This document shows, piece after piece, positions 5,220-62,040 of a stretch of DNA of 64,000 bases (the first letter of the stretch is position 1; every line of letters begins with the position of its first letter). A model generated the notes under the pieces. The model was not told where the DNA came from. It ran no database searches and was given only the letters and a program-made list of their open reading frames with translations. The stretch is taken from assembly GCA_951406725.2 (NCBI GenBank), contig OX597818.1, positions 40,672,001-40,736,000 on the forward strand, read 5' to 3'. This stretch comes from Octopus vulgaris. Taxonomy: Eukaryota. The translations under genes were made by a program, and so were the position numbers.

Positions 5220-5820
5220 CCTATTTCTTTACTGCCCACAAGAGGCTACACACAGAGGGGACAAACAAGGATAGACAAACGGATTAAGCCGATTATATCG
5301 ATCCCAGTGTTTCACTGATACTTAATTTATCGACCCCGAAAGGATGAAAGGCAAAGTCGACCTCGGCGAAATTTGAACTCAGAATGTAGCGGCAGACGAA
5401 ATACCTATTTCTTTACTACCCACAAGGGGTTAAACACAGAGGGGACAAACAAGGACAGGCAAACGAATTAAATCGGTTATGTCGACCCCAGTGCGTAACT
5501 GGTACTTATTTATTCGACCCCGAAAGGATGAAAGGCAAAGTCGACCTCAGCGGAATTTGAACTCAGAACGTAACGGTAGATGAAATACCTATTTCTTTAC
5601 TACCCACAAGGGGCTAAACACAGAAGGGACAAACAAGGACAGACAAATGGATTAAGTAGATTACATCGACCCCAGTGCGTAACTGGTACTTAATTTATCG
5701 ACCCCGAAAGGATGAAAGGCAAAGTCGACCTCGGCGGAATTTGAACTTAGAACGTAACGGCAGACGAAATACCGCTAAGCATTTCGCCCGGCGTGCTAAC
5801 GTTTCTGCCACCTCGCCGCT
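5220..5820 (-). mobile_element. Family A SINE, tandem trimer
   Basis: Head at about 5820; head-less units joined at 5405/5406 and 5589/5590 (184-bp period). Confidence 0.9.
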
Positions 5821-19293: not shown

Positions 19294-19705
19294 GGTGAGC
19301 TGGCAGAAACGTTAGCATGCCGGGCGAAATGCTTAGCGGTATTTCGTCTGCCGCTACGTTCTGAGTTCAAATTCCGCCGAGGTCGACTTTGCCTTTTATC
19401 CTTTCGGGGTCGATAAATTAAGTACCAGTTACGCACTGGGGTCGATATAATCGACTTAATCCGTCTGTCTGTCCTTGTTTGTCCTCTCTGTGTTTAGCCC
19501 CTTGTGGGTAGTAAAGAAATAGGTATTTTGTCTGCCGCTACGTTCTGAGTTCAAATTCCGCCGAGGTCGACTTTGCCTTTCATCCTTTCAGGGTCGATAA
19601 ATTAAGTACCAGTTACGCACTGAGATCAATGTAATCGACTTAATTCCTTTGTCTGTCCTTGTTTGTCCCCTCTATGTTTAGCCCCTTGTGGGCAATAAAG
19701 AAATA
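19294..19705 (+). mobile_element. Family A SINE tandem dimer with 15-bp TSD
   Basis: AGATGTCTTACAAAC at 19279-19293 and 19706-19720; internal junction at 19521/19522. Confidence 0.93.
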
Positions 19706-21114: not shown

Positions 21115-21223
<109 letters not shown>

Positions 21224-21229
21224 CAATAT

Positions 21230-21432
21230 TAGGCAACAAGGATATCCAGAGGTAATGCAGTACGACTCGTTTCATGCAACTCCATTTAATTGAACAATGC
21301 AATCATTACATCAATTTAAAATGCAGAGCAATCGTTAGCTGCACAAAGACAAAGAATTTAATTGTTTTGAAGTTGTATGGATTATACCGTACAAAATTCT
21401 GGTGCCTCAACTTAAGTACCATATTCATCTGA
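21230..21432 (-). mobile_element. Penelope-like/retrozyme-like fragment with hammerhead fold (21256-21343)
   Basis: Minus: TGCAG-CTAACGA-TTGC...GCAT-GAAAC-GAGTC-GTA-CTGCA; homologous to 49438-49805. Confidence 0.65.
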
Positions 21433-21474
21433 ATCTAAATTTTTGCTGAACTCATCTACCATACTCAACGTATA

Positions 21475-30727: not shown

Positions 30728-31160
30728 CATCATCGTTTAACGTCTGCTTTCCATGCTGACATGGATTGGACGGTTTGACTGAGGACTGGCAAGTCAGGAG
30801 CCTGTGCCGCGCTCCAATCTGATCTGGCAAGGTTTCTACAGCTAGATGAGCTTCCTAACGCCATCAACTCCGAGAGTGGAGTGGGTGCTTTTTACGCGCC
30901 ACCAGCACGGGAGCCAGTCAAGCGGCACTAGCATCGACTACACTTGAATGGTGCTTTTTACGTGCTACCGGCACGGGAACCAGTCAGGCAGCACTAGCAT
31001 CGACCATGCTCATATGGTGATATTTTTACGTTCCACCTGCATGGGAGCCAGTCCGGCGGCACTGGCATCGACCACACTCGAATGGTGCTTTTTACGTGCC
31101 ATCGGCACGGGAGCGAGCCAGTCCAGCGGCACTGGTATCGACCACGCTCGAATGGTGCTT
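30728..31160 (-). mobile_element. Retroposon 3' part (GGCGTTAGGAAG... domain, (GAT)n tail) with internal ~65-bp minisatellite
   Basis: Homologous to 40107-40271; about 4.5 tandem units of GGTGCTTTTTACGTGCCACCGGCACGGGAGCCAGTC at 30883-31160. Confidence 0.75.
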
Positions 31161-31169
31161 TTTTTACGT

Positions 31170-31560
31170 GCCACCGGCACAGTGTCGAGGTAGACTATGA
31201 AGGAGTGATGCTTGAGCTCTGAAATCTTTCGTGCATTAATTTCAACACTTATTAATACCGCATTATTTCTTTTCAAATAAACTAGCATCTTATTATACAA
31301 AGAAGACTTCAGAAGTAACCATTAGCGACTTCTCTTGAATATGGACAAAATTCGGTATCATAGTGTTATCAAACACATGCAGAAAAAGGATGTTGCGCAA
31401 GGACAATCGTGCTGAGATGATTGTTACATTAGGGGATGATGCTCCAGCGTTGTTAGCCGTGCAAAATCGAGCAGTTGAAGGGGAAGCAGTCTTAAAGATG
31501 ACCTAAGACGACTTAAAGATGTACGTCCTGCAACTGCCAGCAAAATGTAATTGATCGTAG
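31170..31560 (+). mobile_element. Mariner transposase N-terminal remnant
   Basis: MDKIRYHSVIKHMQKK...LGDDAPALLAVQ resembles the mariner HTH start; frameshifted. Confidence 0.6.
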
Positions 31561-31982
31561 GTTTGTTCAGTCAGTACTGACATAGGGACTAATGAACCCA
31601 CCAAACCATAGCTCTTCTCCAATTCATCTATAGCTCTCTTCTTTCTATAACAGCCATTTAGATAACAGCTTAACCACGTGACCTTTTATTGCCAATACTG
31701 TCTTGTATTTTCGGTCATTTTTATTTTCTTCTTCAATTCTTAACTTTTGAGAATAAATTACTCAGTATTGCCTAATTTTAGCTGTTTTATCCTACGTCTA
31801 CTTTACACTCTCCCTCACCCTCCTTCTCTCTTCAATACTTTCTCCCTCTTGCCTTCTGTGTCTCTCCCTTTCTTTTTAACTATGTCTGTCTGTGTGTTTA
31901 TCTCAGCTCCTCACTTTCTCACTCTCTCTCTCTCTCTCACACACATATACCTACCTACATATATATACATATATATATATAT

Positions 31983-32044
<62 letters not shown>

Positions 32045-32517
32045 TAATCAATATAGGGTGGCAAAAAAAATTTCGTAGAATTTATTTGCCACCAGCGGCC
32101 TAGTGGGAAAAAATTAAATAGTCATAGACCATTTATAAGTTCAACATCACAATCAAGGAATGGCCATAATAGGCCATTCTCCCACTAGAAATAACAGCCA
32201 AAGCTTCAACCGCAAAATAACATCAATTCCGCAAACCAGGAGAAAATTAAAAAAACATTTACCCTGTAATTTCTTATACGATGCACCGTTTCATCTATTG
32301 TTTAATGGTAAACTAACCTGATTAAATTAAATCAAACCAATCTTCCATAGGCCGATAGATTCGTCAGTAAGAAACAGCCAGATCCGAGCAGATATTATCA
32401 CGAGGCACCTCTATCCCTGCCTCGGCAATATCTGACCTAAAATTTTCAAATCATCGCACTCGCGATATATATATATATATATACATATATACACATACAT
32501 ATATATATGTACATATA

Positions 32518-32567
<50 letters not shown>

Positions 32568-32571
<4 letters not shown>

Positions 32572-33165
32572 AGTACATTAAAAGGCTTCCAAATAAAGAA
32601 GCGAGTGCTAGATACACAAAAAGGGGATAAATTTATGAAATGGAATGAAAATCAAAAACGTTTACCAACTCAGCTAATCCTGTACCGCGGTTTCATCTTT
32701 TTTTTAGCAAATGAATAGAATTTATCTGCCAAGGCCAGAATCATCAGCAAGAAGCCTTTGTAATCCGAGACGTACAAACCATTAGAAGCACGTGCAAATC
32801 TAACGATCTGTATACCCTAACTTTTCAGACCAGTGCGCAGACGCAAATCATACCCGGCGACAGAGAGGATGCCGGTAAAATCGAGCAAATTTATCGAGCA
32901 ATATTTAAACATAGTAAATAGGGTAATAAAAATAAATTATTATTACCAGTGACCTAGCACAAAAGACAAATTAGTCATTAGACTATATGTTATTCATATA
33001 TAAGTACATTAAAAGGCTTCTTTTTGTGTATCTAGTACTCGCTTCTTTATTTGGAAGCCTTTTAATGTACTTATATATGAATAACATATAATCTAATGAC
33101 TAATTTGTCTTTTGTGCTAGGTCACTGGTAATAATAATTTATTTTTATTACCCTATTTACTATAT
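32568..33165 (-). mobile_element. Non-coding Penelope-like/retrozyme-like element: 431-bp unit, partial direct repeat and inverted copy
   Basis: TAAGTACATTAAAAGGCTTC recurs at 32570 and 33001; 33021-33162 is the reverse complement of the unit end/start junction; adjacent to (TA)n; contains a hammerhead. Confidence 0.75.
32678..32752 (-). ncRNA. Type I hammerhead ribozyme (predicted)
   Basis: Minus: stem I TCTTG/CAGGA, CTGATGA, long stem II (TTGGCAGAT/ATTTGCTAA), GAAA, palindromic stem III ACCGCGGT, GUA cleavage triplet. Confidence 0.75.
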
Positions 33166-33189
33166 ATTTATTGATATTTATTCTTTTTT

Positions 33190-39475: not shown

Positions 39476-39510
<35 letters not shown>

Positions 39511-39513
<3 letters not shown>

Positions 39514-39752
39514 TCATACGATATAGTGTTTATTTAAACACACAAGGAACCCACTCATAGGAATTCAACACGCTAGAAAGAACAATTGGTCCAGGAAACT
39601 AGATGGTAAAAGGTTTTTATTTTTCATTTCGTTCCTGTCGAATTTTATCCCTAACTTTTTGTGGTTATAGAAGCTAGCTGTTCTTTCTAGCATGTTGAAT
39701 TTCTATGAGTAGATTCCTCATGTGTTTAAATATACACTATATCGTATGACTT
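39511..39752. repeat. Fold-back inverted repeat at a (TA)n tract
   Basis: Arm 39511-39584 is an imperfect reverse complement of arm 39679-39752. Confidence 0.8.
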
Positions 39753-39838
39753 ATATATAGTCTTTTGGACTAAATTTTTACACGTTAGACCACTGTAAAT
39801 GTAAATTTTAATTAATTTCCATTCCTCTTTAATATGAT

Positions 39839-39923
<85 letters not shown>

Positions 39924-49394: not shown

Positions 49395-49437
<43 letters not shown>

Positions 49438-49439
<2 letters not shown>

Positions 49440-49805
49440 AGATGAATATGGTACTTAAGTTGAGGTACCAGAATTTAGTACAGTATCATCCATACAATTT
49501 CAAAATAAGATGATTAAAATCAAAATAAGCAACAGGGATATCCAGAGGTAATGCAGTACGATTGTTTCAAGCAACTCTATTTAATTGATCAATGCAATCA
49601 TTATATGAATTTAAAGGCAAAGCAATCCTCCGCTGCACAAAGACATAGAATTTAACTAAATATACGCGTCCATTTGTTTTAATTTAATTAAATTCTGTCT
49701 TTATGCAGCTGAGGATTGCTCTGCATTTAAATTGGTGTAACGATTGTATTGTTCAATTAAATGGAGTTACTTGAAACGATCGAACTGCATTACCTCTGGA
49801 TATCC
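49438..49805. mobile_element. Penelope-like fold-back element with two divergent hammerhead folds
   Basis: Arms about 49536-49656 and 49688-49805; folds at 49552-49637 (-) and 49704-49789 (+); flanked by (TA)n. Confidence 0.75.
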
Positions 49806-50074
49806 TTTTTGCTTATATATATATATGTGTGTGTGTGTGCGTGTGTAGACAAGCATATGGGTATGTGTCTGTATGTGTACATTTGCATAAGTACGTATGC
49901 TGCACCGTTGTTGTAAGGCAGGGTTGGGTATAATTTACTGATATGTTGCCCATGATTGTAGAGTAACTCTTACTCTACAGTAATTCATGTTTTTCTTCTT
50001 TCTCAGTGCTTGCAAATAATGAACTTGTAGCGGAAGAAACGTGCCATCAATGAGTCCAATAATAAGAACACAAT

Positions 50075-53990: not shown

Positions 53991-54866
53991 TACGGACTGC
54001 TACTATAGTAACGAAGCTAAAGCATGTAGACTGTAGCTGCTTGGCAAAGATTGATCTTGAACTCTGCTATGCATGCGCACTAAGTTTTACATTCTAGCTC
54101 ACTTCCGCTGTTTACAGCAGTGCTTGGTAGAAACGTGTGTAGCATGTGATCAGTGCATTGACTGTGGTAGAGAAAGTTGTTATGGAGATACCTCCTCAGA
54201 GGCATACGCAAAGTCGCAGAAAGTGTATGCAGAGAAGTGTATGAGCCGCACACAAATGTATGAATGGTTCAGAAGCTTCCAAGGTGGCCGAAAAAATGTC
54301 GATATTCCCGAACGTTCTGGGAGACCCGCAACCAGCAGAAATGAGAAAAACCTCGCAGATGAACGGGCAGCCGTGAGGGGAAATCGTCGAATCACCTCCC
54401 GTGAGTTATCACAAGATATGCAAATTAGTTAGGCTTCAGTTCAGTCCATTATCACTGAAGATTTGGGTATGAGACGTGTGTCTGCCAAGTTTGCGCCAAA
54501 ACTGCTTACAGCTGACCAAAAGATACTCGGGTTTCAGTTGCACAAGATCTCCTTGATTGTGTCGAGAACGATGAAAACTGTTTGAAAACTTTGAGTAAGC
54601 CTCTGAGCAGATATCACCAAGCTTTTGACAAAATTTGATGCAGATTCTCTGCTCAACTTTCTCTGTCATGGTCAATGCGACGATCACACGCAACACACCT
54701 TCCTTCTAAGCTCTATTGTAAACAGCAGAAGTGAAACTAGAATGTTAAAGCTTGGTGTGTATGCACAGCAGAGTTCAACGTCATTTCCTGACAAGTGGCT
54801 TTACTTTACATGTTTTAGTTTCGTTACTATGGCAACAGTCCGGATACTTATTGATCAGACCACGTA
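53991..54866. mobile_element. Non-autonomous mariner made of two converging 5' halves
   Basis: Plus HTH SRTQMYEWFRSFQGGRKNVDIPERSGRP...LGMRRVSAKFAPKLLT; minus MTEKVEQRICIKFCQKLG; long imperfect inverted ends. Confidence 0.85.
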
Positions 54867-57333: not shown

Positions 57334-57756
57334 ATTGTTGTATTTCGCAATGGTCATTTTGCCAGTTTAGCCAATAAAAACACACGCACTATATATTTGG
57401 TGTTACTTTGCTTCAGTGTTATTTATTTTTTACATTAATCTTAATCTTATTTCGGCCAGAGTTCTTTTGTCACACTCCTGTGACCACATCAGTGGTCCTT
57501 TGTTTTCTTCTTTCTTATTTGTGTCCCTCCTTACTAACAAAATGGCTGACGGTTAGTAAGGAGGGACACAAATAAGAAAGAAGAAAACAAAGGACCACTG
57601 ATGCGGTCACAGGAGTGTGACAAAAGAACTCTGGCCGAAATAAGATTAAGATTAATGTAAAAAATAAATAACACTGAAGCAAAGTAACACCAAATATATA
57701 GTGCGTGTGTTTTTATTGGCTAAACTGGCAAAATGACCATTCCGAAATACAACAAT
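57334..57756. repeat. Near-perfect palindrome (205-bp arms, 13-bp spacer) beside (TA)n
   Basis: 57334-57538 versus 57552-57756; two mismatches seen by eye. Confidence 0.93.
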
Positions 57757-58476
57757 GTCTGTTTCAACAAACGACTGCACATAAAATATCTTGCACAACA
57801 AATATATAAACGTAATATATATACAATAATCTGTCAGAAATTTAATCTGCTCCGTCCGTTTAGTATATCATATCATGTCCAGGAACTTAAAGCTAACTAT
57901 ATATTTCAGAATTTGAAATATCTTTATTTCAATTAAATTTATACTACTGAATCATTTTACAGTATCAGACACCTATGCTTTGATGTATTAATATAAAACT
58001 TTCCCCACACTTGCTCGTGTGTATGCTTTTGCCGGCATATAACAATGAGGTTGTGTTTGGGCAAATATGTTTGTTTGTAACGTTATATATATTTTCTGTA
58101 TTCTTGTAATCTTATAGTCCTATATTATTTTCAACAGTATACCTACAACTGTTTTCAAACACTACCGTTGCTACTCGATGTCAAATATATTTCAATTTTC
58201 TGCTGTAGTAATTATAACATTAACGTCCTATTAATCGCTGTAACTTTCATGCATTCATGAATTTATTCAGCTTGTTTGATATGATGGAAACAAGTGCTCA
58301 ACATTTGTTATTTTTCTCTGTTTATAAAGGAAGCAACTGAAGCGTTAGACCTGCATTGAAAGCATCATATTTAATAAAAGCGGTCTAAAGGAGATGATTG
58401 TTTCGACACAAACGAAATATCCAAATAACCAGTATGTTTATATCGTGCTAGATTGTCAATAATCTTGGCAATGTAG

Positions 58477-59441
58477 GGCGGTGAGCTGGCAGAAACGTTA
58501 GCACGCCGGACGAGATGCTTGGCGGTATTTCGTCCGCCGCTACGTTCTGAGTTGAAATTCCGCCGATGTCGACTTTGCCTTTCATCCTTTCGGGGTTGAT
58601 TAAATAAGTACCAGTTAGGCATTGGGTCAATATAATCGACTTAATCCCTTTGTCTGTCCTTGTTTGTCCTCTCTGTGTTTAGCCCCTTATGGGTAATAAA
58701 GAAATAGGTATTTCGTCTGCCGTTACGTTCTGAGTTCAAATTCCGCCGATGTCGACTTTGCCTTTCATCCTTTCGGGTTCGATTAAATAAGTACCAGTTA
58801 CGCACTGGGGTCGATATAACCGACTTAATCCGCTTGTCTGTCCTTGTTTGTCCTCTCTCTGTGTAGCCCCTTGTGGACAGTAAAGAAATAGGTATTTCGT
58901 CTGCCGCTATGTTCTGAGTTGAAATTCTGCTAAGGTCGACTTTGCCTTTCATCCTTTCGGGGTCGATAAATTAAGTACCAGTTATGCACAGGAGTCGATC
59001 TAATCGACTTAATCCGTTTGTTTGTCCTTGTTTGTCACCTCTGTGTTTAGCCCCTTCGGGGCAATAAAGAGATAAGAAACGTTTGCTCGCCGTGCGAAAT
59101 GCTTTGCGGTATGTCGTCTGTCGTTACGTTCTGAGTTCAAATACTGCCGACGTCGACTTTGCCTTTCATCGGTTCGAGATCGATTAAATAAGTACCAGTT
59201 GCGCACTAGGGTCAATATAATCGACTTAATCCGTTTGTCTGTCCTTATTTGTCTTCTTGTGGGTAGTAAAGAAATAGGTATTTCGTCTGCCGCTACATTC
59301 TGAGTTCAAATTCCGTCGAGGTCGACTTTGCCTTTCATCCTTTCAGGGATCGATAAATTAAGTACTAGTTGCGAACTGGTGTCGATCTAATCGACTGGTC
59401 CCCGCTCTAAAAATTTCGGGCCTTTTGCCTAGAGTAGAAAA
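58477..59441 (+). mobile_element. Family A SINE tandem pentamer
   Basis: One head, then units restarting at 58707, 58891, about 59075 and 59277; ends in the alternative tail AAAATTTCGGGCCTTTTGCCTAGAGTAGAAA. Confidence 0.92.
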
Positions 59442-60720: not shown

Positions 60721-62040
60721 CTAGCTGAATGACCCGGCGTTGCTCGAGTTACTGCTGTAATTATTCAGATTAGTAAACAATAAATATAAAGATATATTCT
60801 TATAATTACTTCAATATATCTATATTCTATTAAAATATACTTCAATTGTAATGATAATAGGATTTCGAACTGAAAATCTGTGAATGCTGTAGCACCTCAG
60901 GTAAACAATATTCATTGTGTAATTTTTTGTTGGTGTCGAAATGAATAAATTGTTGCTGCTTCCAGCTTGCGAGCAAACAACATAGAGTTGGCCATTACAG
61001 AAGCATGTAGTAGAGAGATCATGTCTAACTAGTTTGAGGGATTGACTCTGAGATAGGTTAACTGAAATACCAAAACTTAGTTTCACTGGAAACTGGATTG
61101 TCTTAAATTCAAATGGAACATCTTTAGGTATGAGAGGAATTTTTGGAATAAAGACATTTTCACCTTTCTGACTACCTGTTATAAATGTTACCTCTAGGAC
61201 GTGGAGTTTCATGGAAGTAACAATTAAGTGTGTTTCATTACACAGGTGAGATGGGTAAAGGTTCCTAAGCAACATAATGGGTGCATCCAGTTTTAGTGTC
61301 AAGTTATGCGGTGGCATCCCAGTAGGTTTAAATGTGTTCAGAAATTCAAAAGGTTATTGATCGACCGTTGTCAATTGATTAAAAAGTCATTTCTGATGTC
61401 TCTATTAACTTTTGAAGAAGTTCATGATTGAATTTATCAACAATTTCATTGGTTGGAGCCAGTATGGCTCTTTCAGATACCCAGTTTACATCGATGTACT
61501 TGACAGATAAATTAGGAAATCCTTTATCCATTAGATCCTTAAGAGAAAGTATCATTTGATCGCATCTTTCATATACTTGAAGTCTTGAGTTGAACGTTAA
61601 TATCCCATTTCCAATCTTAAGAAGCTCGTATGGTCACTCTGATATTGCTTGTAAGATGAAGGTTTGTCACATTACTTCAAAGGTACGATTTTTTAAGTAT
61701 GCGTTGACCTTATCAGCATATGATCCTTTGGGGATAACTGGCAATGTTGGACGAAAATCTCCTACAAGAAGAACTGTTACTCCTCCCACGAGCGTTGTAT
61801 TGCTTTTTTTATGACTTGGAAGGTACGGTCAAGTACCCCTAGAGCTCAATGTTGTGACATAGTGCACTCATCCCAAACAATGAGATAAGTTTATTCGAGA
61901 AGTGTTGTCATTGCAGAGTTTTGGGAAATGTTGAACACTTGAGATTCCTTCATTGCGAGTTTTAGAGGGAACTTGAACATGAAATGAACAGTTCTTCCCC
62001 CATTGAAGTGGGTAACTGCAATACCAGAAGATGCAACACA
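60721..62040 (-). mobile_element. Helitron 3' remnant with Pif1-family helicase pseudogene
   Basis: Minus translations VASSGIAVTHFNGGRTVH, LIVWDECTMS, GGVTVLLVGDFRPTLPVIP, MPPHNLTLKLDAPIMLLRNL, QFPVKLSFGISVNLSQSQSL, GQLYVVCSQ; ends with hairpin CTCGAGCAACGCCGGG and CTAG|T. Confidence 0.92.

Follow-up and report, generated by a model that had tools for sequence, protein, structure and literature searches.

A hammerhead-bearing 431-nt repeat of Octopus vulgaris is probably a non-autonomous Penelope-like mini-element

The repeat E2 lies in a 64,000-nt stretch of Octopus vulgaris DNA (contig OX597818.1), here called the window. It is probably a non-autonomous mini-element derived from Penelope-like elements (PLEs), the enzymes of which would act in trans to copy it from an RNA exceeding one unit. 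Its 431-nt unit is protein-free, multicopy and likely a derivative of the PLE terminal repeat (pLTR). The initial annotation, made from the letters of the sequence, had singled out the unit as a retrozyme-like candidate with a hammerhead ribozyme, but had overlooked a combination that is the published PLE signature: a (TA)n target, copies inverted head to head and 3′ ends some 90 nt apart.

Results

Anatomy of the unit and its insertion

The window is microsatellite-rich animal DNA that contains no N. Read in the ribozyme sense, on the minus strand, the unit runs through segment B, segment C, the hammerhead and segments D and A, and then leads back to B (Table 1). The initial annotation had reported that the first 20 nt of the unit recur 431 bp later; the recurrence is present and extends over 22 of 22 nt (32568–32589 against 32999–33020). 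The longer-than-unit template that it proposed, tandem or circular, is backed by this terminal redundancy together with the end-to-start joints found in other copies. The 3′ end of the main copy, which we term the A-end (CTTA/TA), falls within (TA)n, 113 nt past the predicted cleavage site. The inverted copy, rightly described before as spanning the junction of unit end and start, carries, read in sense, 53 nt from the end of the unit (about 32622–32570) and then 90 nt from its start (33000–32911); in comparison with the main copy it shows one difference in 56 positions and one in 110. The copies are joined 5′ end to 5′ end, sharing 1 nt at 33020, and the 3′ end of the inverted copy, the B-end, lies in AT-rich DNA at a point on the unit about 90 nt from the A-end. 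No target-site duplication is readable in the (TA)n. Six-frame translation gave no long reading frame in the unit and none after B. There is no tRNA gene in the window and hence no tRNA head; the abundant SINE beside the locus is presumably an octopus repeat.

Table 1. Coordinates of the E2 locus and related elements in the window
Feature	Position	Strand	Remarks
(TA)n microsatellite	32465–32571		Holds the 3′ end of the E2 main copy; separates it from its neighbour E1
E2 main copy	32570–33020	-	431-nt unit plus 20 nt; 5′ to 3′: last 20 nt of A, B, C, hammerhead, D, A
Terminal redundancy	33001–33020	-	Final 20 nt of segment A, found again at the main copy 5′ end, offset 431
Segment B	32911–33000	-	90 nt; two predicted hairpins; deepest-covered part of the family
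Segment C	32753–32910	-	Non-coding; connects B with the hammerhead
Type I hammerhead	32752–32678	-	From descriptor scan; one motif per unit
Segment D	32677–32624	-	Downstream of the hammerhead
Segment A	32623–32570	-	3′ part of the unit
Intron-like segment	32608–32665	-	58 nt, G/GTAAA...AG/, just past the cut in E2
Intron-like counterparts	32204–32262 (59 nt); 39606–39670 (65 nt)		In E1 and the 39.5-kb element; aligned with the E2 segment
Inverted second copy	33021–33163	+	5′-truncated; end of A plus B; head to head with the main copy
E1, diverged relative	32045–32464	-	Intact hammerhead 32375–32269; ends at B-end in (TA)n 31959–32044
Third relative	39504–39841	+	Head-to-head pair; left arm at A-end, right arm at B-end, both in (TA)n
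Other hammerhead family, pair	49436–49816		Head to head; decayed cores in both arms; one arm ~90 nt longer; both ends (TA)n
Other hammerhead family, second copy	21222–21434	-	Hammerhead 21344–21255, one core change; inverted copy of the 90-nt extension

Segment B is, we infer, a ‘tail’ between two reverse-transcription start sites. It is homologous in E1 and in the element at 39.5 kb (z of 5.3–6.7 against shuffles), but the consensus fold of four sequences returned a weak 6-bp helix alone, with one doubly changed pair, and the hairpins of B thus rest on single-sequence folds. The intron-like segment and its two counterparts, which have no AG within the last 40 nt, may represent a retained spliceosomal intron, although three AT-rich sequences cannot prove it.

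The hammerhead motif

A descriptor scan identified two type I hammerheads in the window (32752–32678 and 32375–32269), against a mean of 0.06 matches in 100 block-shuffled windows. The motif of E2 has CUGANGA, GAAA and NUH with stems I–III in type I order. Stem I pairs 32752–48 with 32682–78 over 5 bp, one of which is U-G, CUGAUGA occupies 32747–32741 and GAAA 32694–32691, and H17 is A32683, which predicts a cut at 32683/32682. In all of these parts, and in the position of the cut, our result agrees with the initial annotation, as it does for the self-complementary stem III, a palindrome (ACCGCGGU) with no room for a loop that none of the 100 shuffles reproduced. The ‘long stem II’ holds as a long arm but is weaker than described and not a continuous stem: a U.U mismatch at 10.1/11.1 is followed by 3 bp, and beyond an internal loop comes a distal hairpin. 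The 10.1–11.1 pair is usually G-C, and G10.1 and C11.1 are both listed variants of the family in four of four sequencing runs, phase not given. Rfam gave no hammerhead match at gathering level over the whole window, nor any among the 19 weak matches at E up to 10 in 32040–33170, most of which linked microsatellite or hairpin sequence to models of miRNAs; the miss may be due to the long arm of stem II.

Folding of 32660–32770 yields -14.3 kcal/mol under the hammerhead constraint against -21.7 kcal/mol when free, the hammerhead not being the predicted minimum-energy fold, and pair probabilities for stems I and II are near zero in the linear or the circular unit. The palindromic stem III had been taken to suggest cleavage as a dimer, and the model is compatible with this: the stem III self-duplex contributes -14.1 kcal/mol, and the rough sum for a dimer, -42.7, would be level with the -43.4 of two free monomers. 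Taken as a whole, the unit has a better predicted fold than 99 of its 100 shuffles (z -2.8). A single hammerhead is present in 32568–33165; the locus is therefore a monomer rather than a tandem retrozyme and would be unable to release a monomer by itself.

The hammerhead motif is real, and variants within the family suggest that it is conserved through paired changes. Hammerhead variants make up 12 of the 40 variant rows listed (87 in all), with nine changes at paired positions, eight of which have a listed partner state that pairs, and three pairs are altered on both sides among those listed. They comprise C-G to U-A in stem III, G-C to A-U and U-G to C-G or U-A in stem I, and U.U to G-U or G-C at 10.1/11.1; the one unmatched change, at 32752, breaks the outer stem I pair. 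N7 is the sole change at the 13 core positions among the rows listed. Phase was judged from matching depths alone, those of the stem III pair being identical in three of four runs, and both stem III changes are CpG-type transitions. These pair counts leave aside an automatic alignment of five hammerheads, whose stems were misplaced.

Related elements and other features of the window

E1 adjoins E2 between two (TA)n runs and shares 48% identity with it over 362 aligned columns. Its hammerhead is better paired, with an 8-bp stem I and a 12-nt self-complementary stem III, and is a stronger candidate for a cleavage assay than that of E2. E1 and the 39.5-kb element are both diverged relatives, at 48–56% identity and with local scores above all 500 shuffles (z 5.3–10). 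The main copy at 39.5 kb begins in the apparent stem III of its own hammerhead (39583–39591), about 9 nt upstream of the putative cut, a start that points to an uncut or religated template. A relaxed hammerhead scan returned four matches in the window against 0.5 in 40 shuffles (maximum 2). The pairing of an A-end with a B-end recurs at 39.5, 49.5 and 21.3 kb, one end being about 90 nt longer each time, and between the arms of the similar pairs there are 7 differences in 81 nt and 17 in 135 nt, which marks these pairs as old. The members of the other hammerhead family (Table 1) have U.U at the stem II base.

Two further foldbacks (254–590 and 57334–57820) are TA-flanked, with one arm seemingly some 50–85 nt longer and no hammerhead found; the arms of the 57-kb foldback are identical at 208 of 211 nt. 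When tried as relatives of E2, they showed no significant likeness (254–506 and 57334–57756), and they are possibly further PLE ends. The window also holds a Pif1 helicase 2B fragment (60823–61353, minus strand, Pfam E 1.4e-13), likely a Helitron remnant, whose named relatives of highest identity among 37 matches are Octopus proteins (66% and 63%). A dispersed 184-bp unit occurs in two to three tandem copies at 1350–1896, 5220–5773, 19338–19705 and 58524–59074, with no hammerhead match in the strict or relaxed scans, and a 66-bp tandem repeat of 4.4 copies spans 30884–31180. The frame at 54061–54429 (+), which by eye we take to resemble the start of a mariner transposase, has no Pfam match at E up to 0.01.

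Copies of the unit in sequencing runs

Part of the unit is present in 20 of 24 sequencing runs, drawn from 10 studies and four organisms. Contigs from four of the 24 (X1, X4, X7 and X10) were aligned to the unit, and 503, 616, 332 and 95 of them fit it at a likeness of at least 80%, so that the 431-nt unit is a multicopy family in all four runs examined. End-to-start joints occur in X1, X4 and X7; a single record is listed for each of these runs, and the joints hold the 431 register to about 8 nt. Among the 32 pieces listed, contigs from two or more of the four runs bridge each internal link with 31 letters or more on either side, the B–C link being bridged in X1, X7 and X10. None of the pieces listed spans the unit, no copy with two tandem hammerheads was seen among them, and 2–8% of the fitting contigs continue into unlike sequence. 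Pattern scans for relatives returned none in metagenome contigs and none in viral contigs. No spliced joint at 32665–32608 is listed in any of the four runs; X10 is at best presumed to be RNA, and neither its coverage nor its want of such a joint counts here as evidence.

The ends of the copies were expected to be circularly permuted, and this held in part: the 5′ ends vary, whereas the 3′ ends fall at two preferred sites, so the ends are not freely permuted. Among the 24 of 213 loose ends that are listed, two lie in (TA)n near the B-end, at 32927 (X10) and 32939 (X4). Segment B is covered 6–18 times as deeply as the hammerhead in four of four runs, in depths that are uneven and do not measure copy number, and segment C is also deeper than the hammerhead; the excess of B is what 5′ truncation from a B-end would give. 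Further inversion breakpoints were found in X1, at 32671, and in X4, at 32682, the first base past the predicted cut (one contig), the orientation of each joint not being given. Together with the start of the 39.5-kb copy, these joints make three of nine breakpoints that lie no more than 11 nt from the cut, where a uniform spread would give about 0.5; the count is post hoc and includes the two joints whose orientation is not given, and a clustering of 5′ breakpoints at the cut is a lead only. A loose end of X10 at 32666 retains the stem III palindrome as in the window and has a different sequence past the cut, which assigns this relative to another subfamily.

Discussion

PLE insertions often sit in microsatellites and carry an inverted, 5′-truncated copy at their 5′ end, with a tail of 30–40 bp confined to one end (PMC8557442), and their junctions are mostly head to head (PMC3846280). 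E2 resembles PLEs as described (PMC8557442; PMC3846280; PMC11167929) in its hammerhead shortly upstream of the 3′ end, in the 5′-truncated copy that lies inverted and head to head next to its 5′ end, in a one-ended tail that recurs in its relatives, and in its AT-rich or (TA)n target. It departs from them in that it has no ORF and its tail leads back into the unit; the tail is also longer, about 90 nt against the 30–40 bp in print. In E2 the intron-like segment follows the hammerhead; in Drosophila virilis Penelope, by contrast, the intron is reported to end at the 5′ end of helix I (PMC4209133). A point against copying in trans by a PLE is that no autonomous partner turned up: neither reverse transcriptase (RT) nor GIY-YIG had a match in the 73 of 226 window ORFs that were scanned. 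pLTRs can mobilise unrelated sequence in trans (PMC3846280), and the repeat annotation of Octopus vulgaris assigns 6.83% of the genome to PLEs, in 190 families of which 31 were recently active (PMC13282606). The main text and one supplement of that annotation make no mention of ribozymes, and its repeat library may already include the E2 family.

We envisage the copying of E2 as follows. An RNA exceeding one unit in length would be made, in either tandem or circular form. The RT/GIY-YIG protein of a PLE would bind it near segment B and nick both strands of a TA-rich target. From each nick, reverse transcription would then be primed at an internal site of the RNA, the A-end for one nick and the B-end for the other, and the two incomplete cDNAs would join at their 5′ ends. 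These steps have parallels in vitro, where a PLE protein introduces a nick into each strand of AT-rich DNA and the tail is set by two internal RT start sites just downstream of the hammerhead (PMC11167929). In the same system hammerhead cleavage required protein and was dispensable for insertion (PMC11167929). The E2 hammerhead is predicted to cut solely as a dimer or with the help of protein, and is probably not needed for every insertion.

A stricter version of this reading, a sub-case of it rather than its opposite, is that E2 is a classical non-LTR retrozyme, in which tandem transcripts are cut by dimeric hammerheads into 431-nt monomers that are ligated, the circle being the obligatory template. 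E2 resembles metazoan retrozymes (PMC7229834; bioRxiv 10.64898/2026.07.22.740005): these have, as described, a non-coding unit of a few hundred bases and low GC, each unit bearing a single type I hammerhead whose stem III is short and palindromic, as well as head-to-tail junctions, and their mobilisation by PLEs has been proposed, as here for E2. E2 itself is non-coding, falls within 150–450 bp, has a GC content under 50% and carries a type I hammerhead; its size is close to that of mussel units, 350–390 bp, and its U.U at the stem II base is also present in an active axolotl ribozyme (PMC7229834). Ring closure in three of four runs, the stability of the unit relative to shuffles, the self-duplex of stem III that brings the dimer estimate level with misfolded monomers, and the X4 joint at the cut (from one contig, orientation not given) all favour a retrozyme. 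Against it, the locus has one hammerhead and no two-hammerhead copy was seen, the start of the 39.5-kb relative would need an uncut or religated template, cleavage is dispensable for PLE insertion in vitro (PMC11167929), and eight of nine Xenopus dimers tested were without cleavage (bioRxiv 10.64898/2026.07.22.740005). E2 further differs from retrozyme arrays in that it is seen here as a dispersed monomer accompanied by a PLE-type inverted copy, with 3′ ends at two points of the unit, and from metazoan retrozymes in its long stem II arm and possible retained intron. We give the strict retrozyme reading only a minor, though appreciable, chance. The 2026 preprint takes two hammerheads as the criterion for an active retrozyme, and E2, with one at the locus, is accordingly classed as a retrozyme-like monomer that belongs to a non-autonomous PLE; the preprint also argues that such retrozymes derive from PLEs and are not autonomous, and it includes monomers standing alone among their copies (10.64898/2026.07.22.740005).

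It is rather unlikely that E2 is instead the truncated 3′ end, a pLTR and tail, of an autonomous PLE, with the 431-nt period arising where short truncated copies were joined locally. The head-to-head and tail anatomy is that of autonomous PLEs, single dispersed hammerheads and opposite-strand pairs have been described as truncated PLEs (PMC4209133), and an intron-like segment would be at home in a PLE 5′ region. However, the B–C and A–B links recur in other copies and runs with variants of their own, so the period is not private to the E2 locus, and the tail of an autonomous element should enter an ORF, yet none follows B. A minority of copies that exit into an ORF, or core changes, could be found among the unlisted loose ends and variants. 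That E2 is a MITE, a foldback DNA element or an assembly foldback artefact with a chance hammerhead is largely refuted and very improbable, for although a 145-nt inverted repeat adjoins TA and the aligned stretch stopped at 33020, just short of the 33020/33021 junction, the outer ends are different sequences rather than terminal inverted repeats and breakpoints differ among copies, in keeping with the initial view of an element without fixed ends, while similar pairs in the window are old, no shuffle yields such a hammerhead and its stems have paired changes.

As a PLE-derived mini-element, E2 also has close counterparts in the non-autonomous Chlamys PLEs such as MRC1, which are likewise PLE derivatives that form pLTRs and head-to-tail insertions; these come from green algae, in a clade described as mostly without canonical hammerheads (PMC8557442). 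Repeats with hammerheads, and PLE ends that bear them, have been described from many animals including molluscs, so that E2 as such is unsurprising. Searches of the open-access literature yielded no description of hammerheads or retrozymes in cephalopods. What potentially takes the locus beyond routine is its long tail, its possible intron and its countable breakpoints. A bolder proposal, which we consider doubtful, is that cephalopods harbour several families of intron-retaining, ring-shaped mini-PLEs that are a missing link between retrozymes and Penelope enzymes, with RT starts about 90 nt apart and 5′ breakpoints piling up at the hammerhead cut.

The 2026 preprint ties animal retrozymes to PLEs by co-occurrence and sequence homology (10.64898/2026.07.22.740005), and E2, an ORF-less ring with the footprints of PLE reverse transcription, supports that link by evidence of another sort. 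With so abundant a family and breakpoints that lend themselves to counting, an assembly alone would suffice to test what the hammerhead does in PLE copying. Under the bolder proposal, thousands of mapped copies would reveal in vivo whether cleavage and religation belong to the PLE cycle.
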